Positions 1 to 16,075 of a stretch of 64,000 nucleotides of DNA are shown in pieces. Source of the stretch: Candidatus Deferrimicrobiaceae bacterium. GTDB taxonomy: Bacteria; Desulfobacterota; Deferrimicrobia; Deferrimicrobiales; Deferrimicrobiaceae. The position numbers and the translations under genes are program-made. The stretch's first letter is position 1. Every line of letters begins with the position of its first letter. The notes beneath the pieces were generated by a model. That model had not been told where the DNA came from. It saw only the letters and a program-made list of their open reading frames with translations, and ran no database searches. The DNA is taken from assembly GCA_963792415.1 (NCBI GenBank), contig CAWBVY010000008.1:1-64000 (forward strand), in the 5' to 3' direction.

Positions 1-2
1 AA

Positions 3-995
3 CTGCAAAAGCTGGGCGGGCTATACGGCCGCTTCATCAGCATGCATTTCCGTTATACACCGGGCGATGATACCACCGAAGTCAACGGTATCCAGGAGAT
101 GCTGGCCAATGCCGCTGCATTAGGGACACCGGCCATCGCCTCCCATTTCAACAATCCGGGATACAATATGGTGCATGAGCTTATGGTGCGGATGCGGGAA
201 CGGGGCTACAACGTCTGGGGTGAGATCTATCCATATGCTGCAGGTTCCACGGCTTTGAATGCCGTGTTTCTCGAACCTGAAGTCTGGGTAAAGGCCCTGG
301 GCAACAAATACGAAGACACGGTTCAGGATGTCGCGACCGGTGAATTCTATACCCAGAAATCCCGTGAGGAGATGCTCAAAAAAGAACCCACGCGTCTCGT
401 GATTGTCTACAAAAGCCCCGAATCGGCGATTGTTGACTGGATCAAAATGCCCGGCGTTGCCATTGGCAGTGACGGCATGCCCATGATCCCCGACGACAAC
501 CTGACCTGGGACACGCCCAATGAAGATCTGCCCAACACCCATCCGCGGACTTCCGGTGCTTTTGCCACAGTGCTTCGCGTTGCCAGGGAAAACAATATTC
601 CGCTGATGCAGGCCGTATCCATGACCAGTTACAATTATGCCAAGCCTCTGGGCGATATGGGCTTAAAAGCCATGCAGGTACGCGGCCGCATGCAGGAAGG
701 CATGGTCGCCGACATCACCATATTCGATCCTGAAACGGTAAGGGACAATTCGACCTACGCCAAAGGGACGCTTCCGTCCACAGGAATTAAGCATGTGATT
801 GTTAACGGGACAATTGTCATGAAAGACCAGAAGCCCCTGAAAGGGGTGAATCCCGGACAGCCGATCCGTTTCGAGCCGGTCAAGAGCCGCTTCGAGCCGC
901 TAACCATCAAGGACTGGACGTCGAAATATTATGCCTCCCCTATCGATTTTGGCGGCGGAGTGCCCGGTTCACAGCCTGACTTGCATATGCATTAA
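3..995 (+). CDS. Amidohydrolase, D-aminoacylase/N-acyl-D-amino-acid deacylase family (5' part outside window)
   Basis: Frame is open from the window edge. Motifs YPYAAGST, IGSDG, HPRTSGAF and RGRMQEGMVADITIFDP...GIKHVIVNG are typical of D-aminoacylases. Confidence 0.85.
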   Translation: MQKLGGLYGRFISMHFRYTPGDDTTEVNGIQEMLANAAALGTPAIASHFNNPGYNMVHELMVRMRERGYNVWGEIYPYAAGSTALNAVFLEPEVWVKALGNKYEDTVQDVATGEFYTQKSREEMLKKEPTRLVIVYKSPESAIVDWIKMPGVAIGSDGMPMIPDDNLTWDTPNEDLPNTHPRTSGAFATVLRVARENNIPLMQAVSMTSYNYAKPLGDMGLKAMQVRGRMQEGMVADITIFDPETVRDNSTYAKGTLPSTGIKHVIVNGTIVMKDQKPLKGVNPGQPIRFEPVKSRFEPLTIKDWTSKYYASPIDFGGGVPGSQPDLHMH

Positions 996-1154
996 CGTCG
1001 GACTTTGAATACTTGGAGCACACGATACTGTCGTTCGCCGGCCTTTGCCGGTGAAATAGTCAAACGCACTGCCCGGCTCGACGTTGTCGTTGAGCCGGGC
1101 AGCTCCTTATGGGGTCGTCGCAAACCATGGATACCGAGCGGAAGGGAGGTTTTC

Positions 1155-1907
1155 ATGAAACCGGTTCGCTCTCTTGCGCCACATCCGGGTCGAGTCGGAC
1201 TTACCCTTTTCCTCTTTCTGTTGCTGGTTCCGGGTGCCACGGTGGCTCAGGACGATATTCCGGTGTCGCGGCAACAGGTGGGGGAGAAGCGCGCGGCAAC
1301 CGGCGGTAAACCCGTCTCCACCGATCGCGCGGAGGATCCGCATCTCGTTCTCAACCGGACCTGGCACTGGATGGGGACGACTACTCCGGTCGAAAAGATC
1401 ACGGTTCCGGACTCCGGGCGGTACACGATTCGGTTGACCGACGACGGCAAGGTCGAGGCCCGGTTCGACTGCAACCGCGGGGGAGGGGCCTATGACATCT
1501 CCGAAGGGAAACTCTCCTTTGGCCCGCTGCTCTCCACGCGAATGGCCTGTCCGGCGGATTCCCTGGACAGCCGGTTCATGCGGGACCTTCAACGGGTCAG
1601 TTCGTTCTTCGTCCAGGATGGGGAACTCTATCTCGAGTTGCCGTTCGACAGCGGCACCATGCGCTTCCGGTCGCAGCCGCAGAGGCGGGTCATCCAGGGA
1701 GAGTTCGTGGTTCGTTTCGATCCGATTGAAGGCGGATGCTGGAACCTGGTCGCAATCGACAATGTTGTATACCTTCCCGTCAACCTCGACGCCCGTCTTC
1801 GGGTCAACGGCCTTCGAGTCACGGGATCGATCAGGCCATTGACGGATATCGCGGGTTTCTGCCCTGGAGCACCGGCGGAGATCGTCGAGATCGTGCCATT
1901 GCCATGA
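1155..1907 (+). CDS. Exported META (HslJ-like) domain protein with an extra C-terminal domain
   Basis: SD GGAGG precedes ATG 1155. Signal peptide, then META motifs DCNRGGGAY and FGPLLSTRMAC. The C-terminus has an EGGCW..YLPVNL..GLRV module. Confidence 0.8.
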   Translation: MKPVRSLAPHPGRVGLTLFLFLLLVPGATVAQDDIPVSRQQVGEKRAATGGKPVSTDRAEDPHLVLNRTWHWMGTTTPVEKITVPDSGRYTIRLTDDGKVEARFDCNRGGGAYDISEGKLSFGPLLSTRMACPADSLDSRFMRDLQRVSSFFVQDGELYLELPFDSGTMRFRSQPQRRVIQGEFVVRFDPIEGGCWNLVAIDNVVYLPVNLDARLRVNGLRVTGSIRPLTDIAGFCPGAPAEIVEIVPLP

Positions 1908-2093
1908 GGGCGATGGAAATCCGAACAGCCACAGGGGACTTGTCCCGTTGACTCTGACCTGCCCCCTGGTGTTTCCCGTCTTCGTCTGTAAGGGCGCCGG
2001 CGGCGCGTTTTGCGGCCCAGTTTGACCCGCTTTGATCCTGTTTGGCCCCTTGAAGTTGCCGAAATCATTGAAATTGCTGGCCCTCCCGGGGAT

Positions 2094-2138
2094 CTCTTAA
2101 TCAGGAGGTTGTAGGTTCGAATCCTGCATGGCCCACCA
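2094..2138 (+). pseudogene. tRNA-Lys(CTT) 3' half (anticodon loop to CCA), not a full tRNA
   Basis: Anticodon loop CTCTTAA, T-arm GTAGG/TTCGAAT/CCTGC, acceptor 3' strand and ACCA are present. No D-arm or 5' acceptor strand lies upstream. Confidence 0.85.
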
Positions 2139-2146
2139 GAATAACC

Positions 2147-2180
2147 AAGGGGTTACGGCGAGAGCCGTAGCCCCTTTTTC
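2147..2180 (+). terminator. Intrinsic terminator following the tRNA half
   Basis: AAGGGGTTACGGC-gaga-GCCGTAGCCCCTT followed by TTT. Confidence 0.85.
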
Positions 2181-2359
2181 GTTCGACTGCGAGGCAATCG
2201 TGAAGTTCACGCGCGGGATGAGAGAAGAGTTTTCCGCAATCGCTATATCGCGGCCGATACGAAGAAGGACCTTCCCCCCGTTGGTTTCCTTTCGTGTCTG
2301 GTAGACAAGGTTTGGTGACACATTTTATTGGCACGGTATGGAGTGACGGGCCGATCCCG

Positions 2360-2980
2360 TTACATGAACTTGTAGAAGCGGCGTGGAACGTACTTGTCAT
2401 CCAAATCCACGGATCGGAACACAACTCCTGCAGGTGGCGCACCCTTCTGCCGCACCCAGGAGGAAGATTCATAAGCCCACATCTGTCCTTCGCTGTCGTG
2501 ACTGTGAAAGAGCACCACATGTTTGTTTCTTGAATTGAGAATGTCTCCCGGTTTTAACAACTTCCGCGGAATTTTTATGGCGATTACCGGAAGCTCCAAC
2601 GTCGAGTAGCGTCTTACCTGCCAACAGCGCGAGACGAGACCGGAGCAGTCCAGTCCGGCAAAATCGAAACGGACGCAGAGTCGTTCCCCGCAACGTTTTT
2701 TGTAGTTTCCCGCCACCTTGCCGGATCGGACCTTCTCCGAAAACTCCGACGGCAGGTCAAATCCTCCATAATTGTAGGAAACGCCGAGATACGATTTGCC
2801 CGGTACCAGGAGATTGTATTCCCTGCTTGCGTTTTGTCCGCTCGCATTCCCAGTCGACCTCGGCGAAGCGTTTTTGCCCGCTCCATGATTTCGTCACGGG
2901 TGATGGGCCAGGCGTTCATTGGGGAAAGACCCGCGAAAAGCAGTACCGTGAACATCAGGAACTTCAGGGCTCTCTGTCAT
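2360..2980 (-). CDS. NlpC/P60-like (C40) secreted peptidoglycan hydrolase, frameshifted
   Basis: ORFs 2614-2955 and 2360-2716 join into one protein: signal peptide, ITRDEIMERA, YNYGG, GLDCSGLVSRCW (catalytic Cys) and LKPGDILN..HVVLF (His). Confidence 0.7.
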
Positions 2981-3948
2981 GAGGAACGCTTTCGAATCCA
3001 TCGATCGACATAGACCCCGTCTGGTTCCGTGCGCATCTGGTATATCGTGCCCTGTTCGTCCACAACCACTTTCTTGTAGACACTTGTGTGGTATCGATTT
3101 GGCAGCATGAGTTCTGCTATCCGTTTCCCCCGCTTGTTGAACACCCAAACGCCCAGTTGAATCCGGTCGTCATCGTCAATCCGCTGGGTTTCGATGTAAA
3201 TATTGCTTTTTTTGTCTTCCTCCAGGAAATAATTGTTGCCGAAATGATCGGACGTTTCGAGCAGGATCTCCTGAAGTACTTTTCCCTTGGCGTCCTCGAT
3301 CACCAGAAGACGTCTGCTGTCGGATTGTCGGATCAGACGGTACCAGCGATTCCCTCGACGATTGGGGGTTCCTGTGCGTTCGGTGGCAACCTGGCGATCC
3401 TCCGGAAATGCAACCTCGTCCACTTCGAAAAATATACGGTAAGACTTTCGGCCAGACTTGACGTAAAGGGCGTCGTCATTGGTAACCCGCAGCCACTGAC
3501 CGTACCCTTCGTGCAACTTGATGACCGGCGAGATCGGATAGACGCCGACTTCCAACCCGTTCTCGTCGTACTTGTGCAAAGCGTCTCCGTCCAGCAGGAA
3601 GAGGAAGCCGTCGTGCCAGGCAAGAGCGTAGCCGGACAGATTCTTGCCGATGCTTCGAATGAATCGCCCGTCGGAGCCGAATCGTTTGATGTTGTGTTTG
3701 ACGGTGTCAAAGATGTAGACGGTGCCGTTATCGGCCACCGCGAAGGTTCGCGGCCCGATAATTTCTCCGTCAGGAGGATAGAACAACCCGAACGTCCCCG
3801 GTTGCGGCCCCCAAACGGTAGCGATCAAAGTGGTCTTTTGATATTGGTACGTGGAGGTTCCGAACTCGTGTAGGAGCAGAAACACAAAGGCGATGAGGCC
3901 AACGACAACGATAAGGCCGACGAGGTAAACCCTGTTCCGCAAACCCAT
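2977..3948 (-). CDS. Membrane-anchored beta-propeller (NHL/6-bladed-like) protein
   Basis: N-terminal TM helix, then GPRTFAVADNGTVYIFDT..IKRFGSDGRF NHL-like repeats. The stop codon overlaps the probable start of the NlpC gene. Confidence 0.7.
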   Translation of the reverse strand: MGLRNRVYLVGLIVVVGLIAFVFLLLHEFGTSTYQYQKTTLIATVWGPQPGTFGLFYPPDGEIIGPRTFAVADNGTVYIFDTVKHNIKRFGSDGRFIRSIGKNLSGYALAWHDGFLFLLDGDALHKYDENGLEVGVYPISPVIKLHEGYGQWLRVTNDDALYVKSGRKSYRIFFEVDEVAFPEDRQVATERTGTPNRRGNRWYRLIRQSDSRRLLVIEDAKGKVLQEILLETSDHFGNNYFLEEDKKSNIYIETQRIDDDDRIQLGVWVFNKRGKRIAELMLPNRYHTSVYKKVVVDEQGTIYQMRTEPDGVYVDRWIRKRSS

Positions 3949-4025
3949 GGAAACAACCTTCAATGGTGCCCCATTCCACCGGTCAGATGAATTCGTTCTA
4001 TGTCGATAAGGGTACGGGAAAAAGA

Positions 4026-4054
4026 TTGACATCCGTGCACGGAACCAGCATACT
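4026..4054 (+). promoter_or_regulatory. Sigma70-type promoter for the riboswitch-terC transcript
   Basis: TTGACA (4026-4031), 17 bp spacer, CATACT (4049-4054), about 10 bp before the aptamer. Confidence 0.7.
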
Positions 4055-4061
4055 TTTCTTT

Positions 4062-4168
4062 GCGTAAAGGGGAGTAGTCATCGGCCACAGAAAAGGCCGA
4101 CCCGGTTCCCGTCAATACGGCCGAAAGGCCCGGGGCCGGGGCAAATTTCCGCCGACAAGACCTTTACC
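4062..4168 (+). ncRNA. yybP-ykoY (Mn2+) riboswitch
   Basis: P1 GTAAAGG...CCTTTAC, conserved AAAGGGGAGTAG, CGTCAATAC loop and ACAAGACC motifs, located upstream of a TerC gene. Confidence 0.92.
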
Positions 4169-4203
4169 CAGGCGAACATGCCGCGGGTAAAGGTCTTTTT
4201 TTT
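4157..4203 (+). terminator. Riboswitch expression-platform terminator
   Basis: AAGACCTTTACCC...GGGTAAAGGTCTT plus a T-run. It overlaps the 3' strand of P1, so it is mutually exclusive with the aptamer (ON switch). Confidence 0.85.
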
Positions 4204-4306
4204 ACTTCCGGCGATCGTCATCCCGTTGGAGGTGACAGCATGAATCGGATCCATTGAAACGATAGAATTCCGTCCCCCCGCATCCATATAAAAACAAAGG
4301 AGGCAT

Positions 4307-5125
4307 GTGATGTTTGATTTGAGCTGGCTCGGATCGATTTCCTTCGATGGGTTTTTGCCTGCGCTGCTCGGCACCACCCGGTACGACTTCGGGTGGCTGG
4401 GGTGGATCTCCTTCGACTACACGTTTCTTTCCGCGTTGTTGAGCGTCATCCTGGTAGATCTGGTCCTGGCGGGCGACAACGCCGTCGTCATCGCCCTGGC
4501 CGTCCGGAACCTCCCGCCAAACCAGAAGAGGTGGGGCATCATCCTGGGGGCGGGCGCCGCGGTAGGGCTGCGGGTCGTCTGCACCTTTTTCGCCGCGCAG
4601 ATGCTGCGGATCATGTTCCTGAAATTCATCGGCGGGGCGTTGATCCTCTGGATCGCGGTGAAGCTGCTGACGCAGGACCACGCGGACGAAAACGTCAGCG
4701 CGGCGTCGAACCTCTTCCAGGCGGTCAAGCTGATCGTCATCGCGGATATCGTCATGAGCCTCGACAACATGCTGGCGGTCGCCGGGGCGTCCAAGGGGAA
4801 CGCGTTCCTGCTGCTGTTCGGGCTGGGCTTGAGCATCCCGCTGGTCGTGGCGGGCAGCTCCATCCTTTCCACGCTGATGTCCAGGTACCCGGTCATCGTC
4901 GTCATCGGCGCCGCCGTTCTGGGGAAGGTCGGGGGCGAGATGATGATCACGGATCCGTGGATCCAGAAAACGTTCGCGATCCCGCACTGGTTCGTCTACG
5001 TCATCGAGGCTACGTTCGCCATCGGGGTCGTCGTGGTAGGGAAACTGATCATGAAGCGGAGGAAGGAGCAGGAGGAACTGGTTGGGGAGGCGAACTTGCA
5101 GGTACAGGAGAGCGAAACGGAATAA
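4307..5125 (+). CDS. TerC family (YjbE/Alx-like) Mn-related membrane protein
   Basis: Motifs DLVLAGDNAVVIALA and IADIVMSLDNMLAVAGA, multiple TM helices, SD AGGAGG. Confidence 0.93.
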   Translation: MMFDLSWLGSISFDGFLPALLGTTRYDFGWLGWISFDYTFLSALLSVILVDLVLAGDNAVVIALAVRNLPPNQKRWGIILGAGAAVGLRVVCTFFAAQMLRIMFLKFIGGALILWIAVKLLTQDHADENVSAASNLFQAVKLIVIADIVMSLDNMLAVAGASKGNAFLLLFGLGLSIPLVVAGSSILSTLMSRYPVIVVIGAAVLGKVGGEMMITDPWIQKTFAIPHWFVYVIEATFAIGVVVVGKLIMKRRKEQEELVGEANLQVQESETE

Positions 5126-5260
5126 TAAATCAGGAGGTTGCAGGTTCGATCCTGCATGGCCCACCAGAATCACGTTTGGCCCACCAGAATCACAAGGGGT
5201 TACGGCACACGCCGTAACCCCTTATTTATGAAAACGGACCGGGTGGCCAATTTGTGGCTC
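5126..5260 (+). mobile_element. att-like junction copy 2: tRNA-Lys 3' half + 17-bp duplication + terminator
   Basis: AATCAGGAGGTTGCAGGTTCGATCCTGCATGGCCCACCA ends at 5166. TGGCCCACCAGAATCAC is repeated at 5157 and 5177. Hairpin AAGGGGTTACGGC-acac-GCCGTAACCCCTT at 5194-5223. Confidence 0.85.
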
Positions 5261-5298
5261 GCGGGATTGTTCCGTTGGGGAGCCGTACGGTGAGTTTC

Positions 5299-6309
5299 CT
5301 ATCCCTTCCCCCCCTTCCAACGCCGCAGGCGGGCGGCCTCATCGTAGAGCTGACCCCATACCCGTTCGGATTGTCGACGCAGTCTCTCGTCGTGACGCCG
5401 CTCGTAGGCCTGAGCCTCCCGTTCGAGTTTCCGGTAGTGCTCCAGACGATCAGCGGAGAGGTCTCCCGACTTTACCGCCTCCACCACCGCGCAACCCGGC
5501 TCGGCGTTGTGGCGGCAGTCCCGGAAACGGCATCGCGTGGAGAGTTCGGCGATGTCCTCGAAGACCGAGTCGAGGCCATCTTCATCGACAAGCTGCAGCT
5601 CCCGCATGCCCGGTGTGTCGAGCAGCAGGCCGCCTCCGGGCAGCATGACGAGTTGGCGGTGGGTCGTGACGTGACAGCCGCGGCCATCGCGCGCTCGAAC
5701 CTCGCCGGTAGGCATCCGCTCTTCGCCGAGGAGTGCGTTGATCAAGGTCGATTTGCCTGCCCCGGATGAGCCGACGAAGGCCGCTGTCGATCCGTCCGGG
5801 ATGCTTGCCCGAATCATTGAGAGGCCCTCCGACCGGAGAGCGCTGGTCAAGTAGACCGGCACCAAGGGACAGTGACTCTCGACCTCGGCCGTGCGTGCGA
5901 CGGCGTTCTCGCAGAGGTCAGTCTTGTTGAGGATTACCGCGGGCTGTGCCCCGCTCGCCCAGATTCGGGCGAGGTAACGTTCGATCCTGCGAACGTTGTA
6001 GTCCGCGTCCAGACCGCAGACGGCGAACACCAGGTCGACATTGGCGGCGACAATTTGAACGCGTCCCTGGCGTCCGGCGGCTCCGCGGGTGAATACCGTG
6101 CGCCTTGCAAGCACGCGGTCGATGATGGTGGTGCGATCAGGGCCGGGTGCGTCCTTGAGGACGACCCAATCGCCGACAGAAGGGAGTTCTTTCTCCTCAA
6201 GCTGTGTGCGAAGCTTCCCGGAAAGCCGGGCACGGCCGGCGCCTGATGCGGACCAGACCTCATACCCGCCGCGGTGCTCGGCGGCAATCCTGGCGGGGAG
6301 AGCCCGCAC
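5299..6309 (-). CDS. rsgA: Ribosome small subunit-dependent GTPase A paralog (probably N-terminally truncated)
   Basis: VGDWV, AANVD, LNKTD, GSSGAGKST, TTHRQL, DTPGMRE and CRFRDCRH..EPGC zinc finger. No clear start codon or SD. Confidence 0.88.
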   Translation of the reverse strand: MRALPARIAAEHRGGYEVWSASGAGRARLSGKLRTQLEEKELPSVGDWVVLKDAPGPDRTTIIDRVLARRTVFTRGAAGRQGRVQIVAANVDLVFAVCGLDADYNVRRIERYLARIWASGAQPAVILNKTDLCENAVARTAEVESHCPLVPVYLTSALRSEGLSMIRASIPDGSTAAFVGSSGAGKSTLINALLGEERMPTGEVRARDGRGCHVTTHRQLVMLPGGGLLLDTPGMRELQLVDEDGLDSVFEDIAELSTRCRFRDCRHNAEPGCAVVEAVKSGDLSADRLEHYRKLEREAQAYERRHDERLRRQSERVWGQLYDEAARLRRWKGGKG

Positions 6310-6409
6310 GGCCCGCCAAGCACAGTAAAAGGACTGTAGTATAAAATAGAGATATTGTCTTGAACACGACAATCGGAAGTGACGATTAATGAAATTGAAA
6401 GGATTCGCC

Positions 6410-7186
6410 ATGCCCAAATTCGCCGCCAACCTGACCATGATGTTCAACGAGGTCGCGTTCCCGCTGCGTTTCGAAGCCGCGGCGAAAGCGGGTTTTACGG
6501 CCGTCGAGTTCCTCTTCCCCTACGACTACGCGCCGGCCGATGTTGCCGGCCGGCTCGCCAGGAACGGACTGAGCAACGTGCTGTTCAACATGCCGCCCGG
6601 CGACTGGGCCGCGGGCGAGCGCGGCATCGCCTCGCTGCCCGGCCGCGAGCGACCGTTCCGCGACGGCGTGGCCCTCGCCCTCCAATACGCGGCGGCGCTC
6701 GGCACACCCTGCATCCACGCCATGGCCGGCCTCCTGCCCGCCGGCGCCGACCGCGCGCGGCATCGCGCAGTGTTCGTCGACAACCTGCGCTTCGCCGCCG
6801 CCGAACTGGAGACGGCCGGGCGCATGCTGCTCATCGAGCCGATCAATACCCGTGACATTCCCGGCTACTTCCTAAACACCCAGGCCGAGGCCCACGCCAT
6901 CCGCGAGGAAGTGGGGGCGCCCAACCTCAAGGTGCAGATGGATTTCTACCACGCGCAGGTCGTCGAAGGCGACATCGCCATGACCTTCCGCAAGTACCGC
7001 GAACACGTCGGCCACATCCAGGTCGCCTCGGTGCCCGAGCGAAACGAACCCGACGACGGCGAGGTCAATTACCGGTACCTGTTCCGCCTGCTCGACGAGC
7101 TCGGCTATGCCGGATGGGTCGGTTGCGAATACCGACCGCGCGGCAACACCGTGGATGGCTTGGGCTGGTTGAAGACGCTGGCCTGA
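6410..7186 (+). CDS. otnI: Hydroxypyruvate isomerase family, 2-oxo-tetronate isomerase-like
   Basis: [62 protein letters not shown]. Confidence 0.85.
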
Positions 7187-7236
7187 GGGGGACGCCATGA
7201 AGATACTGATGTCCGGTTGCGCCGGCACCTGAAACG

Positions 7237-8394
7237 ATGTCGGGCCCGGGCGCCGCTGCAATCTTCGGTTCCTTCTTGCGCCTCGGCATCACCGCCTTCG
7301 GCGGGCCCGCCATGATTGCGCACATCAAGGAAATGTCGGTAATAAACAAGAAATGGCTGACCGAGGAAACCTTCAAGGATGGTGTCGTGATCTGCCAATC
7401 GGTGCCGGGGGCGACGGCGATGCAGATGGCGGCCTATGTCGGGCTGCGGGCGGGAGGGGTGCGTGGGGCGACCGCGTCGTATGCCGGATTCGGGCTGCCG
7501 GCATTCCTCCTGATGCTGACGCTGGCCGTATTTTATTCCGGTTCCAGGGAGTTGCCCCTGGTGGTTTCCCTGTTCCAGGGCCTTCAGGTGATGGTCGTCG
7601 CCATCGTGGCGAGCGCGACGTTCCACTTCGGGCGGGACATCGGAAAAAAGCCGGTAGACCTGGTGCTGGCCGGTGTCGCCGCCGCACTGTTCTGGTTCGG
7701 TGTGAGCCCGTTCGCGGTCATCGTCGGCGCGGGGATCGCCGGGGCCATGTTGTTCCGGGATGCGCCGCCCCTGACGTCTTCCGGCAGCCGCGAGGGAAAT
7801 GCCGGGAAGGTACCCAGGCCGATCGTCCTCTTCCTGATCCTGGCATGCGCGGGGGTCGCTGGGCTCTACTTCGCGGACAGGAAGCTGTATCAGCTTGCGG
7901 TGATGATGCTCCGGATCGACCTCTTTGCCTTCGGGGGAGGGTTCGCATCCCTGCCGCTCATGTTCCACGAGGTCGTGAATGTGATGGGATGGATGGACGG
8001 GAAGACGTTCATGGACGGAATCGCCCTCGGGCAGGTAACTCCGGGGCCGATCATCATAACCGCCACCTTTGTCGGCTACCTGGTCCGAGGGCTTCCCGGC
8101 GCCTTGGTGGCCACCGCGGCGATCTTCACGCCGTCCTTTGTTGTCCTGGTCACCGTCACGCCATTTTTCGACCGCTTGAAGAACACGAAATCTTTCTCCG
8201 CGACGACCCGGGGGATCCTGGCGTCGTTCGTCGGTCTTCTTTTCTACGTGACGATCCGGTTCGCGGCGGCCGTCCCCTGGGACGTCGTCAAGGTCCTGTT
8301 CGGGATCGCGGTGATCGTCGCGTTGGCCAGGAAAGTGAACATCCTTTATGTCGTACTGATCGGTTCGGTCTTTTCCTTTGTCGTTTTTCGTTGA
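7237..8394 (+). CDS. chrA: Chromate efflux transporter (long-chain CHR)
   Basis: Two CHR halves: LGITAFGGP...QSVPGA and AFGGG...GQVTPGP. Confidence 0.92.
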   Translation: MSGPGAAAIFGSFLRLGITAFGGPAMIAHIKEMSVINKKWLTEETFKDGVVICQSVPGATAMQMAAYVGLRAGGVRGATASYAGFGLPAFLLMLTLAVFYSGSRELPLVVSLFQGLQVMVVAIVASATFHFGRDIGKKPVDLVLAGVAAALFWFGVSPFAVIVGAGIAGAMLFRDAPPLTSSGSREGNAGKVPRPIVLFLILACAGVAGLYFADRKLYQLAVMMLRIDLFAFGGGFASLPLMFHEVVNVMGWMDGKTFMDGIALGQVTPGPIIITATFVGYLVRGLPGALVATAAIFTPSFVVLVTVTPFFDRLKNTKSFSATTRGILASFVGLLFYVTIRFAAAVPWDVVKVLFGIAVIVALARKVNILYVVLIGSVFSFVVFR

Positions 8395-8433
8395 ATTAAG
8401 TGGTCATAGGTCCCAGTTCCCTATGGAGCGTGA

Positions 8434-8640
8434 GCGGCGCGTTTGCCGGGTCATATTGACCCGTAATGGCCCGGCTTGATCCTTTTAAGTTTTTGATATC
8501 ATTGAATTTAATGGCCCTCCCGGGGATCTCTTCCTCAGGAGGTTGAAGCTTCGAATCCTTCATGGCCCACCAGAAAAACCGACGGATTACGGCGCAGGCC
8601 GTAGCCCCTTTTTGATTCTTGTTGCACGGGGGTTGCGGAT
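8434..8640 (+). mobile_element. att-like junction copy 3: arm repeats + IHF box + mutated tRNA-Lys 3' half + terminator
   Basis: Ungapped homolog of 2000-2179 (offset 6434). CTCTTcc tcaggaggtt GAAGC TTCGAAT CCTTC atggcccACCA at 8528-8572. TAAGTTTTTGATA at 8486-8498 matches IHF consensus WATCAANNNNTTR on the minus strand. Confidence 0.85.
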
Positions 8641-8726
8641 TTTTCCGAATTCTTTTTTTATTCTCGACCGCCATTATGGTCCGTCCACGGAAAAGGATTG
8701 AAGTTTCAGAGAGTTACTTCCGATAA

Positions 8727-11465
8727 GTGAAAACAGCGTATCCATTTGACATTCGAGGTGCAGTGTTGGGCCGGTTTGCGGGAATCTTTGGCGATGGCTG
8801 GGCGAGAATTTGCAAACTGCGCCCGCGGAATACCATCGCCATCCCCATCGTGTTGCTCCTCATCATCATCGGCGCAGGGATTCTCACCGCCGGCTACCAC
8901 ATCAACAAATCCGTTTTCCATACGGTGTTCGAGGAGCGGGAGAGCAACAAGGCAAGGAATATCCACCTGACGATCGAATCCATCGTCTCCACGGAGGTGA
9001 ACAGGATCGCGAGCCTCGCGAAGATCCTGAAAAACGATACGGACATCGTGTACGGGCTTTTCCATTACAGCGGGACGAAGGGCGACACCCGACCGCTGAT
9101 GTCGGCGATGAATCAACTCTATCCGAAGATGAACCTGCGGGTCTTCGTCATGGCCGATACCAACGGGAAGGTCCTGTACCGCGCGGGAAAGGAGAAGATG
9201 CCGGGAGAGGGAAAACTGGAAAGGATGCCGGCATTCAAAAGAGCGTTGAAAGGTGATCAGGTTGTAACGGCGATCCACACTCCGGAAGGATTCGGGATCT
9301 GGGCGATCGTCCCTGTCTACGTATTCGGGAAGGCGAGGCCCTCGGGATTGCTGTTCCTCGGCAACCGCATCGACAACGACTTTGCAAAGAAGATCGCCCG
9401 GGAAACAGGTAGCCAGGTGTTTCTGGCGACCACCGATGGGGTGTTTGCGGAATCGTACGACGTCGGAGTTGTCGGGGGATTCAATCCCCTGCTGGCCAAG
9501 AGCAGCATAGAGGGGAATCGGCCCATCTTCCACATGGACAGAGAAAACTACCGTTCCTATACGTACGTGCCGATCAAAATTGTAGAGGAACCGTTTTGCC
9601 TCGTGATCGAGACGGATACAAGCGTCATAAAGGATCTCCTGGCGATGAACAGGACCCGGATGATCCAATGGGGGTTCATCCTCCTGGTCGGCCTCGCGAT
9701 GGTCGGAACCGGTTTGACCCTCCTGCTCATCTGGCCGTTGAACCGACTGCGCGGAAAAGCGTTGCAGGCCATCCGGGAGTATTCCGGAGCAGGGCCCGAT
9801 GCCGTTCCCCGGGGAAATGAGCTCTCGACGCTGGTGCGGGCGAACGACATCATGCTGGATACCATCAAGAACCACCTCGCGGAGCGGACACGCGCCGAGG
9901 AAGCGTTTCGGGAAACCAGTCGTACTCTTCACGCCTTGATCGAGGCGTCTCCCCTCGCGGTGGTCGTCAGCGACCCTTCCGGAACGGTTCGCCTGTGGAA
10001 TCCCGCCGCCGTCCGGATATTCGGATGGACCGAGGCGGAAACGGTCGGTCACCCGAACCCCCTTCTATCCTCCGAGGGGAACCCGGGGCTGCGAGCCACA
10101 TGCAACCTCGTCTTGCATGGAGAGAGTTTCTCCAATACGGAGATCTGCGGCCAGACACGTTCCGGTTCGAAGATCTTCTTAACCTTTTCGGGCGCCCCCA
10201 TGCTCAACGCGCAGGGGGAGATCGCCTCCATGATGGCGATCATGACCGACATCACCGACGCCAAGGCGGCAGAGGAAGCGTTGCGCCGCAGCGAGGAGCA
10301 GCTGCGCCAATCCACGAAGATGGAGGCCGTTGGGAAACTGGCGGGGGGCGTCGCCCATGACTTCAACAACCTCCTCTCGGTCATTACCGGGTACAGCGAA
10401 CTCCTCCTGGCTCGCACCGACGACACGAATCCAGCGCGGCGGGAGATCGTGGAGATCCATAAGGCGGGCGAACGGGCGGGGGCCCTAACGCACCAGCTCC
10501 TTGCTTTCAGCCGGCGGCAGGTCCTGAAGCCGAAAATGCTTCGCATGAACGACGTGGTGGGCAACATTGGGAAAATGCTTCAGCGACTGATCGGAGAAGA
10601 CATCGACTTCGCCATGGAATCGCAGGAGGGCCTTTGTACGGTCCGCGCAGACCCGAGCCAGATCGAGCAGATCCTGATGAATCTTTGCATCAACGCCCGG
10701 GATGCCATGCCTGCGGGAGGAAAGCTGGTCGTTTCCACTGCAAACGTGACGTTGGATGCGCCACTCGTGGAACGGGAGTTGACCATCCCCCCGGGCCGCT
10801 ACGCGATTCTTAAGGTTGCCGACGATGGGAGCGGCATGGACGAGGAGACTCTCTCCCGGATCTTCGAGCCGTTCTTCACCACGAAGGATCACGGAAAGGG
10901 GACGGGCCTGGGGTTGGCCACGGTGTACGGGATCGTGAAACAGAGCGACGGTTACATCCGCGTCATCAGCGCACCGGGGGAAGGAACAACTTTCTCTGTC
11001 TACCTTCCCGCCGCCGAGCGGGAAGAACCCGAAACGGAAGAGGACCGACCGGCGACCGAATGCGAGGGTCCGGCAGGGAAGCGGACGATCCTCTTGGCCG
11101 AGGATGAAGAAATGGTGCGGGAGCTGGCCATCGAAATTTTCCGGAAGGACGGGTACACCGTCCTCCACGCCCCGAACGGCACCGGCGCTCTTGAGATCTG
11201 CGACCGCCATGAAGGCTGCATCGACCTGCTGGTCACCGACCTGATCATGCCCGGTATGAACGGGATCGAGCTGGCTCGGAGAGTGTGTGATTCGAGGCCC
11301 GGAATCCCGGTTCTCTTCATGTCTGGGTACGCGGAAGACGCCAAGGATCGCCTTGGAGACCTGGTCAACGGGCGGTACTTCCTCCAGAAGCCGATCACAC
11401 CGACGAAGCTCTCCCGGAAAGTGAGGGAAATCTTCTCTGAACGTGGGGTGGGAGTAGCGGTGTAA
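8727..11465 (+). CDS. Hybrid sensor histidine kinase (periplasmic Cache-like, PAS, HisKA, HATPase, REC)
   Basis: Two TM helices, PAS domain, H-box GGVAHDFNNLL, FEPFFTTK..GTGLGL, C-terminal receiver LLVTDLIMP. Confidence 0.93.
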   Translation: MKTAYPFDIRGAVLGRFAGIFGDGWARICKLRPRNTIAIPIVLLLIIIGAGILTAGYHINKSVFHTVFEERESNKARNIHLTIESIVSTEVNRIASLAKILKNDTDIVYGLFHYSGTKGDTRPLMSAMNQLYPKMNLRVFVMADTNGKVLYRAGKEKMPGEGKLERMPAFKRALKGDQVVTAIHTPEGFGIWAIVPVYVFGKARPSGLLFLGNRIDNDFAKKIARETGSQVFLATTDGVFAESYDVGVVGGFNPLLAKSSIEGNRPIFHMDRENYRSYTYVPIKIVEEPFCLVIETDTSVIKDLLAMNRTRMIQWGFILLVGLAMVGTGLTLLLIWPLNRLRGKALQAIREYSGAGPDAVPRGNELSTLVRANDIMLDTIKNHLAERTRAEEAFRETSRTLHALIEASPLAVVVSDPSGTVRLWNPAAVRIFGWTEAETVGHPNPLLSSEGNPGLRATCNLVLHGESFSNTEICGQTRSGSKIFLTFSGAPMLNAQGEIASMMAIMTDITDAKAAEEALRRSEEQLRQSTKMEAVGKLAGGVAHDFNNLLSVITGYSELLLARTDDTNPARREIVEIHKAGERAGALTHQLLAFSRRQVLKPKMLRMNDVVGNIGKMLQRLIGEDIDFAMESQEGLCTVRADPSQIEQILMNLCINARDAMPAGGKLVVSTANVTLDAPLVERELTIPPGRYAILKVADDGSGMDEETLSRIFEPFFTTKDHGKGTGLGLATVYGIVKQSDGYIRVISAPGEGTTFSVYLPAAEREEPETEEDRPATECEGPAGKRTILLAEDEEMVRELAIEIFRKDGYTVLHAPNGTGALEICDRHEGCIDLLVTDLIMPGMNGIELARRVCDSRPGIPVLFMSGYAEDAKDRLGDLVNGRYFLQKPITPTKLSRKVREIFSERGVGVAV

Positions 11466-11512
11466 CGTCTCCCGACCATCGCGGGTTCCCGCTCCGGAAG
11501 TCGTCCCGGGAG

Positions 11513-11941
11513 TTATTGCTGAAGCAGCAGATGCTCCTGGCGTGAGGTTCCCACCACCACCGTGACACGCGACCCGATCTTCAGTTTCCCCTCCTGGTTT
11601 CGGAACATTATGTGATGGATATCCTTTTCCCCGGGGGTGCTGAACGCGGCCATCCGGCCGATGCGTTGCAGGCGAACGACGGAAAACTTTTCTCCCGTGG
11701 ATTCGTCGACCAAGTAGATTTCCTCCGCCTCTGGATCGAACCGGTCCCCCCCGATCATCCGGAACCGGACACCCACAAACTCCCGGTTTGCCGCAAGCTG
11801 CAACTGGACGACTTCCAGGCGCGGCGGGGGAGGCTGCAGCGCTTCTTTTTTCGCGGAACACGACGCGATGAGGCACAGGGTTGCTGCCAACAGGACGCGA
11901 CTGCCGATCCACTTCCTTTCCCACCCCATACCGCATTCCAT
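11513..11941 (-). CDS. Hypothetical lipoprotein
   Basis: Lipobox-like LIASC and a coherent ORF convergent on the kinase. Confidence 0.65.
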   Translation of the reverse strand: MECGMGWERKWIGSRVLLAATLCLIASCSAKKEALQPPPPRLEVVQLQLAANREFVGVRFRMIGGDRFDPEAEEIYLVDESTGEKFSVVRLQRIGRMAAFSTPGEKDIHHIMFRNQEGKLKIGSRVTVVVGTSRQEHLLLQQ

Positions 11942-12039
11942 GGCCCGAATTGTACCACCCGTGGAGCGGGGCAGGAATATATCGAAACTATCCATGTCGG
12001 GACGGTCCGTTCCTTTTTGTTATCCGTCTGTCAGAACGC

Positions 12040-12083
12040 GCCGTAACCCCTTTTTCTTGCCGGGTGCGAACAGGGTGCAAGCC
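12040..12083 (+). repeat. att-like junction copy 4 (remnant: terminator 3' arm + paired arm repeats)
   Basis: GCCGTAACCCCTTTTTC matches the terminator arms of copies 1 and 2. It is followed by GGGTGCGAAC/AGGGTGCAAG, shared with copy 5. Confidence 0.6.
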
Positions 12084-12156
12084 GGGGAACCCGTATCGGG
12101 TCTTGTCGGTGTTTAGCGAGGGACGGTTTCAGGTACTGCACGTCAACAAATGAATG

Positions 12157-12402
12157 TTATGAACACTCCATTCCCGCGCGGAACCGAAGTTCGCGGGCAA
12201 ACCAGTCGTAATATTTCTCTCCGGGTCGACTTGTCTCGAACCATCGGTTATCTCCGTTCACCATTTCAGCCGCGGCCCATTCCACCGCCTCCTTCAACCG
12301 CTCATTTTCATCCTTCAATGTCTGTATCGTTTCCACTATCGGCATATTCGTGCCGATTATCCTTCCGATTTCTTCAAGCATCCGGGTTCTTTCTTCTTCC
12401 AT
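12157..12402 (-). CDS. Small phage-like orphan protein
   Basis: Strong SD AAGGAGG, 81 aa, coiled-coil LKDENERLKEA, lower GC, located between att remnants. Confidence 0.6.
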   Translation of the reverse strand: MEEERTRMLEEIGRIIGTNMPIVETIQTLKDENERLKEAVEWAAAEMVNGDNRWFETSRPGEKYYDWFARELRFRAGMECS

Positions 12403-12484
12403 TCCCCTTCCTCCTTCGGTGGGGCGGAGAGTGGGTGAAAACCTCCGCACCCGAATGATATGCCGCTCTGCTCATTTTATGCCT

Positions 12485-12537
12485 GGTTCGTGCCTGCAAT
12501 GGCCCCTTTTTCGTTCCGGGTGCGGACAGGGCGAAAG
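12485..12537 (+). repeat. att-like junction copy 5 (degenerate T-arm fused to terminator tail)
   Basis: GGTTCGtgCCTGCAaTGGCCC, then GCCCCTTTTTCGTTC (15 bp identical to 2170-2184), then CCGGGTGCGGACAGGG similar to copy 4. Confidence 0.6.
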
Positions 12538-12610
12538 TTTTTCCCCATTCAACTAAAATAAGGAAGTTGCCGCCACGGTCCTTGCCAATTTTTCCTCCGG
12601 GGGTGCATCC

Positions 12611-12985
12611 ATGCAACGAATCAAAATGACCATCGGTTCCGTGACGCTCGAGGCCGAACTCCTCGAGACGCCGACGGCGGAGGCGATCTGGAACGCCTTG
12701 CCGTTCACCTCCAGGGCGAATACCTGGGGCGAGGAAGTGTATTTCTCCACTCCGGTGAAAGCAAAACGGGAGTCCGACGCCCGGGATGTCGTCGAGCACG
12801 GCGAGCTCGCTTTCTGGGTGGAAGGGGATTCCATCGCGATCGGTTTCGGTCGCACACCCGTATCCCGCGGCGATGAAATCCGGCTCGCGGCCCGGACCAA
12901 TATCTGGGGCAAGACCAAGGGGGATGTCAGGCAGCTCAAAACGGTCACATCCGGCGCACCGATCAAGGTTGAGAAGGCCGGTTAG
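12611..12985 (+). CDS. Cyclophilin-like fold protein (TM1367/DUF369-like)
   Basis: [36 protein letters not shown] signature. Confidence 0.85.
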
Positions 12986-13075
12986 GGACCACCTGTTTTA
13001 TCGTGCCCCGCCCCCCGGATCCGCTCCGTTCGACCGGTGGTTCGGCAAGTCGTTTCATCACTGGTCCACCAGGCT

Positions 13076-13604
13076 TTACGCCCTCGTCCCGACCACGGCC
13101 TGGAGGATCGTCCGGCAAAATGCCGGCAGATCCTCCGGCTTCCGCGACGTGACCAGGTTGCCGTCCCGAACGACTTCCCGGTCCTCGTAGAGGGCACCCG
13201 CGTTCACCAGATCATCCTTAATCGCGAAGAAGCAGGTCGCCTTCCTGCCCCGCAGCACATCCGCCGAAACCAGCATCCATCCGCCGTGGCAGATCGCCGC
13301 GACCACCTTCCCCCTCGCGAACACGTCGCGGACCAGGTCCACCATCGCCTTGTGGCGGCGCATTCGGTCGGGCGCGTAGCCGCCCGGTATGATCAACGCG
13401 TCGAAGTCGGCGGCGTTTACTTTCCCCGCTGTCGCGTCCGGAGTCACCGGGTACCCGTGCTTTGAGGAGTATCCGCCAGCTACCTCCCCCCACGATGGTC
13501 ACCTTCGCCCCCGCTTCCCGGAACCGATACACGGGATACCACAACTCGAGATCCTCGTAGAGATCTTCCGCCAGAACGGCAATGTGCTTCCCTTTCAGTT
13601 CCAT
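13076..13604 (-). CDS. pfpI: PfpI/DJ-1 family intracellular protease/deglycase (one frameshift near 13480)
   Basis: YEDLELWYP in one frame. IIPGGYAPD, AAICHG and VTSRKPEDL in the next frame. Confidence 0.88.
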
Positions 13605-13849
13605 CTTCCCCTCCCGCTTGCCGGTGACCTGGATTCCGAATCCCTCCGTCCCCCTGACCGTTGGAGAGCGTTTCCGGAGGTCCGGTTTCACCTTTACGGA
13701 CGGCTCAATGAACCTGCGCTCCTTGTTGGGCCAACCGGACGAGGGGAATTTTCAAACGAGGTTGACCAAACCCTCCGCAATCGGTTCGCGATGTGTGGAT
13801 GCTTTTCAGAGCGGAATGGTTGATCCCGCGGGATCCAGCCGGCTGCGTG

Positions 13850-15277
13850 TCAGCCGCGAAGATCGATGACTTCCAGCCGTTGCGCCACGTCCGGGTGGTC
13901 CGGTGAGGGCCCCTCGATCAGGACCAGATACTCCCCCGGAACCCCCTGCGCCGCCACCCACTGTTTCGCCCATGAACGCCAGTCCCCCGCGGGTTCGTCC
14001 AGTTTCTCCGGGTGGATGCCGTATGCGAATTGAAGCCCCTGGCAGGTTTCCTCGCTGGTGGATGGGGCCGTGATCCAGACGGGAAGACGGAACCGGGCGA
14101 GCTGCCGCGCGGTGGATCCGCTGCGGCTCGGGACGATGACGCCGGCGACGGACATCCTGGCGAGGACGTTCTCGATGCTCATGGAAACGAGGTCGGATGG
14201 GGCGACGGATCCCGAATCGATCACCGTCTTCACGGCCTCGCGAACGAACTGACCCGTCCGGAACGGCTCCGCCGCTCCCGCGATCCGGGCGAGGGTCCGG
14301 ACCGCCTCGACCGGGTATCTCCCCATGGCGGACTCGCCGGAGAGCATCACGCAGTCGGTGCCGTCGATGACCGCATTGGCGACATCGGTGGCCTCGGCGC
14401 GGGTCGGGCGGGCGTTCTCGGTCATCGACTCGAGCATCTGGGTTGCCGTGATGACCGGTTTGCCGAGGAGATTGGCGCGGTGGATGAGCCGTTTCTGCTC
14501 GATGGCGATACCCTCGATGGGAATCTCGACCCCGAGGTCCCCCCGTGCCACCATGATGCCGTCGGAAGCTCCGAGGATCTCGTCGATCCGCCCAAGGGCG
14601 ACGGCGCGCTCGATCTTGGCGATGAGGAACGGGTTGCGCCCGGCCGCGCGGGCTGCGCGACGCACCTCGTGGATGTCTTCCGCCGAGGAGATGAAGGACT
14701 GGCTCACGGCATCGACGCCGCACTCGAGCGCGAACTTCAGGCACTCCCGGTCCCGCGCGGTAAAGGCGCTGATCCCGAGGTCGACGCCGGGGACGTTGAG
14801 CCCCTTGCGCGATCGGAGCTCGCCCCCGGCGATCACCCGGCATGCCACGTCGTTCCCCAGGACCTCCTCCACCTCGAGGCGGATGATCCCGTCGTTCAGA
14901 TACAGGTTGTTTCCCTTCCGGACCGAGGCGGGGAGACGGGGAAAATCGACCGATGCGCGGGAGCTGTCGCCGACGATGGTATCCGTCGTCAGGGTGAACG
15001 GGTTCCCCGGGAGGAGCAGGACCGGCTCCGCCGCCAGGGAGCCGATGCGGATCTTCGGTCCCGGGAGGTCCGCCATGATGGCGAGCCGGCGGTCCACCCT
15101 GCGGGAGGAGTCGCGGAGGTTTTCGATCGTCCGCCGGTGTTCCTCGAACGTCCCATGGGAAAAGTTCAGGCGCGCGATGTTCATCCCGGCGAGGAGCAGC
15201 TGGTCCATGACCTCGGGCGATTCGGACGCCGGGCCGATGGTGCAGACGATCCGGGTCTTGTGGGCGGGCAAGGTCAT
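13850..15277 (-). CDS. pyk: Pyruvate kinase
   Basis: KTRIVCTIGPAS, ARLNFSHG, DLPGPKIR, IMVARGDLGVE, ATQMLESM, PTRAEATDVANA. Confidence 0.96.
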   Translation of the reverse strand: MTLPAHKTRIVCTIGPASESPEVMDQLLLAGMNIARLNFSHGTFEEHRRTIENLRDSSRRVDRRLAIMADLPGPKIRIGSLAAEPVLLLPGNPFTLTTDTIVGDSSRASVDFPRLPASVRKGNNLYLNDGIIRLEVEEVLGNDVACRVIAGGELRSRKGLNVPGVDLGISAFTARDRECLKFALECGVDAVSQSFISSAEDIHEVRRAARAAGRNPFLIAKIERAVALGRIDEILGASDGIMVARGDLGVEIPIEGIAIEQKRLIHRANLLGKPVITATQMLESMTENARPTRAEATDVANAVIDGTDCVMLSGESAMGRYPVEAVRTLARIAGAAEPFRTGQFVREAVKTVIDSGSVAPSDLVSMSIENVLARMSVAGVIVPSRSGSTARQLARFRLPVWITAPSTSEETCQGLQFAYGIHPEKLDEPAGDWRSWAKQWVAAQGVPGEYLVLIEGPSPDHPDVAQRLEVIDLRG

Positions 15278-15352
15278 GAAACACCCCCGGTATTTCGGTT
15301 CCTCTCGCGTTCGCGAAGCGGATGTCCTTTGTTTCTCCCTTCAAATATTACC

Positions 15353-15523
15353 CCGATTCGGGAACCGGCGCTGATGGGAAGTCTCCGTCCACGGCGGGAT
15401 GGGAGTCCTTCAAGGGTCAAACGTTGGCGGGAAGGGAACCTTGGGAAGGCCGAATGCATTTCCTGCAACGGATGCTTCGCGCCGTCCGGCGACGGCCGAG
15501 GGCTCCACTGCGTGATCAAATAG
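15353..15523 (+). pseudogene. C-terminal remnant of an NADH:flavin oxidoreductase (OYE-like)
   Basis: PIREPAL...VKRWREGNLGKAECISCNGCF...LHC* resembles the C-terminus of Fe-S OYE-type oxidoreductases. The rest of the gene is absent. Confidence 0.6.
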
Positions 15524-15595
15524 GGGGTCGAACCCCACGGGGGGGAAGGAGCGGTTCGCGGTATCTCCTTCCCAACAATCCATGGGTTCGGTCGG

Positions 15596-16075
15596 TCACA
15601 CGGCGTGGTGAAACAGGACGGGAATCCTCGATCCACCGTTGGCCTTGACCTGGTTGAGGTCGAGCAGAGGTTTCGTCAAACCGAGCGCCGGGATCGAGGT
15701 GACGATGACGTCGCACCGTTTTTCCTCCGCCACCTTCAAAGCGCCATGCAGGGGAGATTCGCTCGAAAGCCGCATCTTTTCAAACCGGATTCCCCGGTCG
15801 GAGCACATCTTCTCGGTCGAATCCAGGGCTTCGTTCGCCAGATCAACCTTCCGTCTCTCAGCGGCGGCGAGTGCCTCCTTGCCGGACCTGCCCGCCCCGG
15901 ACCACTTCAACTCGTCCAGGCCGTAGATATGCCGGAGTTCCTTCCAGGTGAAGTTTCCCGTGACATAGACCGCCGTCACCTTGGCCTCGAGGGATTCGGC
16001 AAGCAGCACCCCGAGGCAGGTATGCATCGAACAACCCTCGCACCCGTTCCTTACCAGCAGCACGCTCTTGTACAT
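15596..16075 (-). CDS. Universal stress protein family (divergent)
   Basis: MYKSVLL..LAESLEAKVTAVYV..ALKVAEEKRCDVIV..SRIPVL, SD AAGGAGG. Confidence 0.75.
   Translation of the reverse strand: MYKSVLLVRNGCEGCSMHTCLGVLLAESLEAKVTAVYVTGNFTWKELRHIYGLDELKWSGAGRSGKEALAAAERRKVDLANEALDSTEKMCSDRGIRFEKMRLSSESPLHGALKVAEEKRCDVIVTSIPALGLTKPLLDLNQVKANGGSRIPVLFHHAV

Follow-up and report, generated by a model that had tools for sequence, protein, structure and literature searches.

The window examined here is the initial 64 kb (64,000 nucleotides, forward strand) of contig C8 (CAWBVY010000008.1) of a Candidatus Deferrimicrobiaceae bacterium (GCA_963792415.1, designated G000), whose source bin comprises 11 contigs and 2.84 Mb. 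Near its left end the window carries repeated 3′ halves of a tRNA-Lys(CTT) gene, which separate short gene segments. The window probably includes the distal portion of an array in which integrative elements entered one behind another at a single tRNA-Lys(CTT) gene and subsequently decayed to integrase-less remnants flanked by attachment (att) sites. The anatomy of the repeats, their polarity, their restriction to one locus, the arrays headed by an intact tRNA gene in relatives, and an integrase of the cognate type together with integrase remnants are all directly observed. The order of events is what we infer from them, and the elements in the window would be immobile unless an integrase arrives from outside.

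The repeated module was recovered by direct-repeat search and BLAST, and three full copies are present. The first consists of a displaced tRNA-Lys(CTT) 3′ half that extends from the anticodon loop through CCA (2094..2138, plus strand; 44/45 identity to the intact gene on contig C7), followed by a terminator with a 13-bp stem and a T-run (2147..2184, plus strand), the hairpin of which (2147-2176) is terminator-like. The second (5128..5226, plus strand) combines a truncated half, which aligns at 37/40 with a single gap, with a terminator at 5194-5223. The initial 5-6 bases of this half are missing, a 20-nt tandem duplication is present at 5158-5193, and no left arm precedes it. The third (8528..8613, plus strand) has a half that is 40/45 identical, a loop mutated to CTCTTCC, and a terminator whose hairpin (8587-8604) was scored terminator-like. 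Since the same GC-rich hairpin and T-run lie directly 3′ of the intact C7 gene, the module terminator is native to the tRNA gene. Matches of 40-45 nt at 89-98% identity cannot arise by chance. The proposal of an earlier note on this DNA, that the copies are tRNA-Lys(CTT) 3′ fragments displaced by site-specific integration, is supported. The polarity of the array was also confirmed, as the plus strand carries every copy, and the segments delimited by the copies are of the lengths claimed (~3.0, 3.4, 3.5 and 0.45 kb). A sixth copy, 36/45 identical, lies beyond the window at C8:94357-94441.

The earlier note had counted five module copies. Three of them are the full modules at 2094, 5128 and 8528; those at 12040 and 12485 proved to be debris. 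The stretch 12036..12125 (plus strand) contains the terminator loop, 3′ arm and T-run (12036-12056) followed by a right arm of the second family described below (P2′), and no tRNA half was detected at 12036 by local alignment (score 5). At 12485..12540 (plus strand) a possible T-arm and acceptor remnant (12485-12511) is joined to the T-run, again followed by a P2′ arm; the tRNA part was read by eye only, and local alignment recovered GGTTCG alone. A right flank of 25-30 nt is common to the two sites. Because this flank adjoins tRNA-Lys or integrase remnants in relatives, both sites are regarded as real att debris and not as full modules.

The T-stems of the halves differ from the resident GTAGG/CCTAC, being GCAGG/CCTGC at 5128 and GAAGC/CCTTC at 8528. 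Such variants are expected if a separate element brought each half. The half at 2094 has a hybrid T-stem in which GTAGG is paired with CCTGC. The acceptor strand of all halves in the window (ATGGCCC) fits the 5′ half of the C7 gene.

No intact tRNA gene was found in the window by ARAGORN. The intact template, tRNA-Lys(CTT), is located at C7:224808-224884 of the same genome, where it closes a cluster of His, Arg(CCG) and Lys genes. When the module and four arm queries were compared with the whole genome by BLAST, the matches were the copies on C8, the intact C7 gene and the first 28 bases of C9, together with a short similarity to tRNA-Thr; the module is absent from the remaining 2.7 Mb. The genome-wide scatter of a repetitive extragenic palindrome (REP) or miniature inverted-repeat transposable element (MITE), which the earlier note had named as an outcome that would speak against its model, was thus looked for and is not what the copies display.

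Contig C9 ends (C9:1-300) inside a second tRNA-Lys 5′ half, which follows His and Arg(CCG) genes. This half has two differences from the C7 gene, and the half and its spacer resemble those of contig C112 of the sister-genus genome G045. The end of C9 represents either a second locus or a mis-binned contig. In the relative G011 the tRNA cluster is held twice (C18 and C23).

Arrays of the same kind were found in relatives. The 91-nt module is present in 23 of the 28 genomes searched in the genus, several long contigs carrying many same-strand copies, and ARAGORN identified an intact tRNA-Lys(CTT) in six of the eight stretches fetched from relatives. As on C7, the intact gene of the relatives belongs to a His-Arg-Lys cluster, with the displaced halves following it. 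On G011:C23 the intact gene (14831) is followed by four same-strand halves (28243, 35353, 41827 and 73604) over 59 kb. On G038:C8 the intact gene (276172, minus strand) is followed along 57 kb by five halves and by one copy reduced to the terminator. An intact gene with at least one displaced copy was observed on each of G039:C10, G007:C84, G033:C78, G051:C23, G067:C7 and G080:C7. In the fetched genus genomes and in G067 and G080, the opposite strand carries a tRNA-Arg(TCT) gene upstream. The expectation that an intact tRNA-Lys(CTT) stands upstream of the array in the plus orientation therefore holds for the relatives, where it heads the arrays; in the present genome the intact gene is on a different contig (C7). 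The AcrB gene that ends the arrays of G011 and G033 is found here at C8:22796-24171. From this flank, the chromosome would resume ~10 kb or less past the window array, and the window copies would form the distal end of an array like those of the relatives.

The modules are bordered by attP-type arms, which define at least two families. The left arm of family 1 (P1; 2000..2093, plus strand) contains three ~10-nt TTTGACCCG-like direct repeats and abuts the tRNA-like core, its conserved end leading into the loop-like CTCTTAA. Within a search set of 11 stretches (10 from relatives and this contig), 12 other copies were found at 74-91% identity, 13 in total. A diverged P1 arm, 74-80% identical to 2000-2093, precedes the third module (8434..8527, plus strand). 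Left arms reach ~230 nt in some relatives, and those in the window are shorter. Partial matches to P1 occur in a second genus, and the arm is present in 43 metagenome loci, a set of contigs that carry a P1-core junction. The right arm of family 1 (P1′; 2185..2235, plus strand) has two GTGAAG-type repeats and is also located 3′ of the intact tRNA-Lys in G011:C23, G035:C12 and G039:C10. The right arm behind the third module (8614..8650, plus strand) is a family-2 variant resembling the arm between tRNA-Lys and a complete integrase in G045:C112; no integrase is found 3′ of it in the window. Family 2 has a left arm of its own in G011:C10 and G038, and its right arm, P2′, is present at window positions 12057 and 12516. 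The P2′ arm at 12036-12125 is the same as one of G011:C10, which stands there after a full half. Assignment of the right flank of the second module to P2′ was also considered and was rejected, the alignment similarity being unconvincing.

The arms are constant and their neighbours are not. The flanks beside P1-core junctions are diverse, 37 left flanks falling into 29 clusters and 27 right flanks into 22, and in many elements the arm families differ between the two ends. The flanks of 25 collected junctions were aligned, and in nearly all of them tRNA identity starts at the anticodon loop. This is the pattern of integrases that cross over there, in the sublocation scheme reportedly given by Williams (2002). 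Truncations that recur behind the loop and within the T-loop, as well as hybrid T-stems, show further recombination inside the half, which blurs the crossover point. Displaced halves at G033:C78 (L035 9438-9467), G038:C8:269659-269689 and the metagenome loci L126 and L136 end at an identical T-loop point after GGTTCGAATCC, with unrelated DNA beyond it. This shared break point may be a second recurrent recombination point.

A further tRNA-like sequence was noticed near the family-1 right arm. About 100-150 nt to the right of this arm lies a tRNA-like 3′ piece with a long variable arm, a T-arm and an acceptor ending in ACCA, at G011:C23 (L009 ~15010-15130), G039:C10, G035:C12, G007:C84 and the metagenome loci L110 and L136. 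Its identification as tRNA-Sec was rejected on a poor alignment score; it resembles tRNA-Leu(GAG). An intact tRNA-Leu(gag) is located in G007 immediately after the final Lys half. The motif GTGCAAACAAC lies left of the Leu-like piece and occurs also in the long form of the P1 arm. The piece and the motif may mark a second att system or arm-type sites held in common.

Seven matches to the tyrosine recombinase family PF00589 were found in the genome (of which 72,000 bases are withheld) and none on contig C8, in agreement with the description of the segments as free of integrase. The full-length proteins among them are XerD, an XerC-like protein, a 340-aa recombinase and a weakly matching 339-aa one beside tRNA-Ala. 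An integrase from genome G049, internally deleted and convergent with a displaced half on a 1.8-kb contig, was used as query over 70 genomes of the family. This search led to a complete integrase of 417 aa on G045:C112, convergent with an intact tRNA-Lys(CTT). The order there is intact tRNA-Lys, terminator, a P2′-type arm like that at 8614-8650, and then the integrase, which has Phage_integrase (catalytic), SAM_3 (SAM-like) and Phage_int_M (central) domains. The integrase frame (L051 982-2235, minus strand) continues past the catalytic Tyr region through the right arm and terminator and ends within the opposite-strand tRNA-Lys. As the frame ends inside the tRNA gene, the last ~45 residues of the integrase would change upon excision.

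Array integrases in the ten relatives searched are short fragments only (G011:C18:106118, G011:C10:14781, G011:C23:34331 and G038:C8:245655), and these remnants belong to at least two clades. Likewise, the search beside the intact tRNA-Lys in eight genus stretches gave short fragments only. Members of the G045 integrase clade in G000 are fragments beside tRNA-Thr only. A predicted integrase that matches the site is thus encoded in the family, and most arrays appear to keep its wreckage. The earlier note had stated that its model of cassettes would fail if relatives showed each segment to be an eroded remnant of a large island with its own integrase. Such erosion is evident from the integrase fragments in the arrays of relatives, the complete G045 integrase next to tRNA-Lys, the short left arms and the two debris copies.

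The tRNA-Thr(CGT) gene occurs on three G000 contigs (C1:187770-188320, C2:1768-1851 and C3:1-480), with integrase fragments beside the C1 and C3 copies. The beginning of C3 matches C1:187770-187969 at 99% identity. The locus looks like a further tRNA hot spot at which alternative islands fork the assembly.

The gene content of the segments was annotated with Pfam (cut-off E ≤ 0.1), and Rfam was run at E ≤ 1 over window positions 1-16000. Each segment contains 2-4 genes, and both strands are used. To the left of the first module lie an amidohydrolase fragment (3..995, plus strand), which runs off the start of the contig, and a META-domain protein (1005..1907, plus strand); no homologue of this pair (1-1907) was found in any relative locus fetched. 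The next segment begins with open reading frames (ORFs) on the minus strand (2360..4032), for which the labels NlpC and propeller had been suggested and no Pfam match was obtained. The block 2364-3978 is common with G005:C100 at 91%. It is followed by a TerC-family membrane protein (4307..5125, plus strand; E 5e-44), which has an 83% paralogue at C7:109705. The riboswitch proposed upstream of terC (4052-4306) was not found by Rfam, yybP-ykoY included; the interval gave only a weak match to the small RNA family ncS035, 21 bits against a threshold of 79. Elsewhere in the Rfam interval only sub-threshold BjrC68 matches on the terminators were obtained, and neither a tRNA nor a riboswitch family.

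The segment between the second and third modules encodes RsgA (5299..6447, minus strand; single genome copy), a xylose-isomerase-like TIM barrel protein (6389..7186, plus strand) and ChrA (7237..8394, plus strand). The context of each of the three genes in relatives differs. In G011, rsgA also lies within the array, with a P1 arm 1.2 kb to its left, and chrA is on a separate contig, 7 kb from a tRNA-Ser cluster. The third module is followed by a hybrid sensor histidine kinase (8727..11465, plus strand) and a 160-aa ORF (11513..11995, minus strand) within the same kinase block. This block (8692-11995) has identical sharp ends in six relatives. Between the two debris sites lies a 97-aa orphan ORF (12157..12450, minus strand), whose homologue in G011:C10 is placed between a P2′ arm and an integrase fragment. 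Of the cargo named in the earlier note, TerC, RsgA, the TIM barrel, ChrA and the hybrid kinase were recovered by Pfam.

Only the segment 5128-8527 keeps both ends, with half and terminator on the left and P1 arm and next half on the right; the others keep one att end. A cis-mobilizable element (CIME) retains attL and attR and no longer has genes for integration and transfer, and this is the state of segment 5128-8527.

These observations can be accounted for as follows. A tyrosine integrase would recombine the tRNA gene, within the anticodon loop or immediately 3′ of it, with the attP of an element. This attP would be composed of a left arm, the tRNA-like core, a tRNA 3′ half with terminator, and a right arm. 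The 3′ half of the incoming element would rebuild the gene, and the old half with its terminator would be displaced downstream, so that repeated rounds would give the order tRNA, element, half, element, half and so on. Later deletions would have taken away the integrases and pieces of both the arms and the halves, and rearrangements would have brought resident genes in. The outcome in the window would be integrase-less, CIME-like segments, att-flanked on one or both sides. Under this scheme each half and terminator goes with the element to the right of it, while a left arm goes with the one to its left. Unit 1 would then be the end of an element with the amidohydrolase and META genes and the P1 arm. 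Unit 2 would have a P1′ arm, no left arm, and the ORFs of unassigned family with terC. Unit 3, of 3.4 kb, would have both ends and contain rsgA, the TIM barrel gene, chrA and the P1 arm. Unit 4 would begin with the integrase-side arm type and hold the kinase block only, and two family-2 stubs would follow it. The META gene, terC and chrA now end at terminators that derive from the tRNA gene.

Several observations weigh against this reading. The array and the intact tRNA-Lys are on separate contigs: only 2 kb of C8 precede the first module, and the intact gene is on C7, 11.4 kb from the end of that contig; comparison of the C7 and C9 ends with the C8 start revealed no end overlaps. The terC stop codon adjoins the second tRNA half with no left arm between them, so that not every boundary is an att site. 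The rsgA gene, ordinarily a housekeeping gene, is single-copy in the genome and lies between two att modules. The kinase block is found in G017, G010, G015 and G001 without a tRNA half alongside. On account of rsgA and the kinase block, some cargo looks like resident chromosome, and some segments may never have been mobile. The view of the segments as cassette cargo is partly borne out. Constant arms with varying neighbours speak for it, as do the 13.3-kb unit of G011 and the Pyr_redox block described below; the single-copy rsgA, the kinase block that stands without halves in four species, the separate contig of chrA in G011 and the 3997-6297 variant speak against it. Finally, the searches gave no complete family-1 element that has an integrase, the fully bounded G011 and G007 elements included. 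The decay of family 1 is for this reason deduced and not seen; assemblies of metagenome-assembled genomes (MAGs) tend to break at or lose intact mobile elements.

Structural variants were sought in 20 public runs (12 studies), all of them available as Logan contigs, which are sediment, aquatic and estuary metagenomes holding parts of the stretch. One variant, present in contigs of two independent studies (X1, X9) and resembling the arrangement of species G005 on G005:C100, joins 3997 to 6297. It also weighs against the proposed history, as terC, the second module and rsgA are lost as one piece and the joint cuts across a module and not at modules. The circular cassettes suggested as a check in the earlier note, and empty junctions, were not demonstrated in these runs. 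Two joints in X1, 2145->5193 (skipping 3047) and 5141->2113 (back 3029), were considered as an empty site and a circle. Each is represented by one contig, with a depth of ~17.5 and shorter sides of 46 and 74 letters, and both are best explained by a strain without the 20-nt duplication. Loose ends at 2094 that read as a tRNA 5′ half were set aside, the simplest explanation being intact-gene contigs mapped to the near-identical half. Joints of low depth with short sides (4915->8854; the 103xx-108xx group) were ignored as likely paralogues of other organisms. One X9 contig joins 8390 to 12036 with 22 letters between them. It may reflect a form without the kinase block and the third module, but at a depth of 2.1 it is too thin to use. 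Viral contigs searched with the junction pattern gave 0 matches. Taken together, inserted units, deletions and resident genes that were rearranged make the region a mosaic.

Among the alternatives to decayed tandem integration, the one that fares best supposes active non-autonomous cassettes. Family-1 units would never encode an integrase and would be moved at tRNA-Lys by the integrase of family 2 or of an incoming element acting in trans, which would make a family-wide capture platform. A recombinase could have acted in trans, and we regard the explanation as unlikely overall. No integrase was found behind the family-1 right arm in the genus P1′ loci examined or among the P1′-type flanks of the 43 metagenome loci. 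With the G045 protein, tblastn against those 43 loci gave 0 full-length matches and 3 remnants, ~18 of the loci having at least 1.4 kb of right flank, enough room for the gene; a search with a single query over short flanks could miss distant or serine recombinases. The unit on G011:C23 between 14.9 and 28.2 kb, 13.3 kb long and bounded by P1′ and P1, contains regulators and an RND metal-efflux system and nothing else. At 74-91% identity the arms equal genes in conservation while their neighbours differ (29 clusters among 37 left and 22 among 27 right flanks), they extend to the second genus, and a Pyr_redox block that directly follows the tRNA in G000:C7 takes the second place in G038.

Against this, cargo on the left-arm side would vary for any element that has its integrase at the opposite end. 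The window arms are truncated and diverged (74-80% for the P1 pair), and mutation has altered the core of the third module. Of the relevant clade, G000 has only the fragments beside tRNA-Thr, its other recombinases being XerC/D and two unrelated ones. No circle or empty-site junction was shown, the two candidate joints being explained by the 20-nt duplication, and the mixed arm families at element ends fit deletion and fusion better than clean exchange. It is doubtful that tRNA-Lys(CTT) serves as a standing capture site across the Deferrimicrobiaceae, with integrase-less units shuttled by borrowed integrases. Equally tentative is the unit this would imply, a left arm of ~100-230 nt with three TTTGACCCG-like repeats and a right arm bringing a spare half and terminator. 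If true, it would be an integron-like logic of independent origin, with a tRNA gene as the entry and lambda-type arms as the cassette ends.

A second alternative, which we consider improbable, is that one or two old integrations were followed by rearrangement. The halves would have been multiplied and interleaved by unequal crossing-over, gene conversion and illegitimate recombination, and most cassettes would not be separate insertions. Hybrid T-stems (GTAGG with CCTGC at 2094, and mixed combinations in the metagenome loci), the 3997-6297 variant that crosses a module, the single-copy rsgA within the array, and gene-sized blocks placed in a different context in each species are all in its favour. 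However, the presence of at least two or three arm families and of differing T-stem alleles implies that several elements came in independently, the arrays of relatives contain remnants of integrases from at least two clades, and polarity is strict in every array seen. That the module is a dispersed repeat of tRNA origin, like a REP, MITE or SINE, or a terminator unit propagated for regulatory use, is scarcely credible: each full module does lie directly behind a plus-strand gene and includes a strong terminator, but its absence from the other 2.7 Mb already contradicts such spread, and in relatives it is found only downstream of tRNA-Lys on the same strand.

Stacking of elements at one tRNA gene, with subsequent decay, is thus the favoured account of the window. 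It would mean that a little-known uncultured lineage of sediment and groundwater stacks elements at a small-RNA gene, as streptococci, Dehalococcoides and Prochlorococcus do, and thereby makes a hypervariable region. The array is a readable record of past insertions, and its cargo is ecologically relevant: chromate and metal efflux and sensor kinases here, and cytochromes in relatives. As repeated halves break assemblies (the C8 and C9 ends), MAGs of the group would under-report this part of the pangenome. Of wider interest is whether integrase-less family-1 units are still moved in trans.

The analogy with integrons drawn in the earlier note does not hold. The likeness consists in an ordered polar array, a single recombination hot spot, the newest unit expected nearest the entry, and units without their own recombinase. 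In contrast to integrons, no intI is adjacent to the site, there are no attC-type sites and no common promoter; the repeat is a tRNA fragment with lambda-like arms, and the units are multi-gene (2-4 genes) and use both strands. The array is not an integron by any defining feature tested.

Closer parallels are already in print, tandem accretion and CIMEs both being described in two studies (PMC5704250, PMC3146451). In streptococci, integration is followed by decay to an att-keeping CIME and the next element enters at the retained site, a tRNA-Lys site being known in S. agalactiae (PMC5704250). The streptococcal integrative and conjugative (ICE), integrative and mobilizable (IME) and CIME elements are alike in tRNA 3′ integration, loss of the integrase with att kept, and tandem growth through the retained site. 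Unlike streptococcal CIMEs, the units here show no conjugation or mobilisation genes, arrays contain more units, with up to 5-6 displaced halves, and the system is known from sequence. In Dehalococcoides, multiple tandem islands lie within ~100 kb downstream of ssrA, bounded by repeats of the ssrA 3′ end; 16 islands contain an integration module, and the 15 that lack one were proposed to be CIMEs (PMC3146451). Tandem islands at one small-RNA gene, 3′-end repeats and extra conserved bases beside the repeats are in common with the present array. The target there is tmRNA, the repeat is 20 bp and the integrase is a serine integrase, whereas here the target is tRNA-Lys, a 45-nt half and terminator are displaced, the recombinase is of the tyrosine type and the arms are long. 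The tycheposon islands of Prochlorococcus have adjacent elements separated by a partial tRNA only, with fragmented integrases and scattered partial tRNAs (bioRxiv 10.1101/2020.12.28.424599). By architecture, on which alone the comparison is made, they are similar in being tyrosine-recombinase elements at tRNA genes with adaptive cargo. Intact tycheposons are described there at 1-2 copies per genome, and here none was found in 28 genus genomes. What is distinct in the present system is the uncultured Deferrimicrobiaceae host, the length of the displaced half and terminator, and a whole arm family seen without an integrase.

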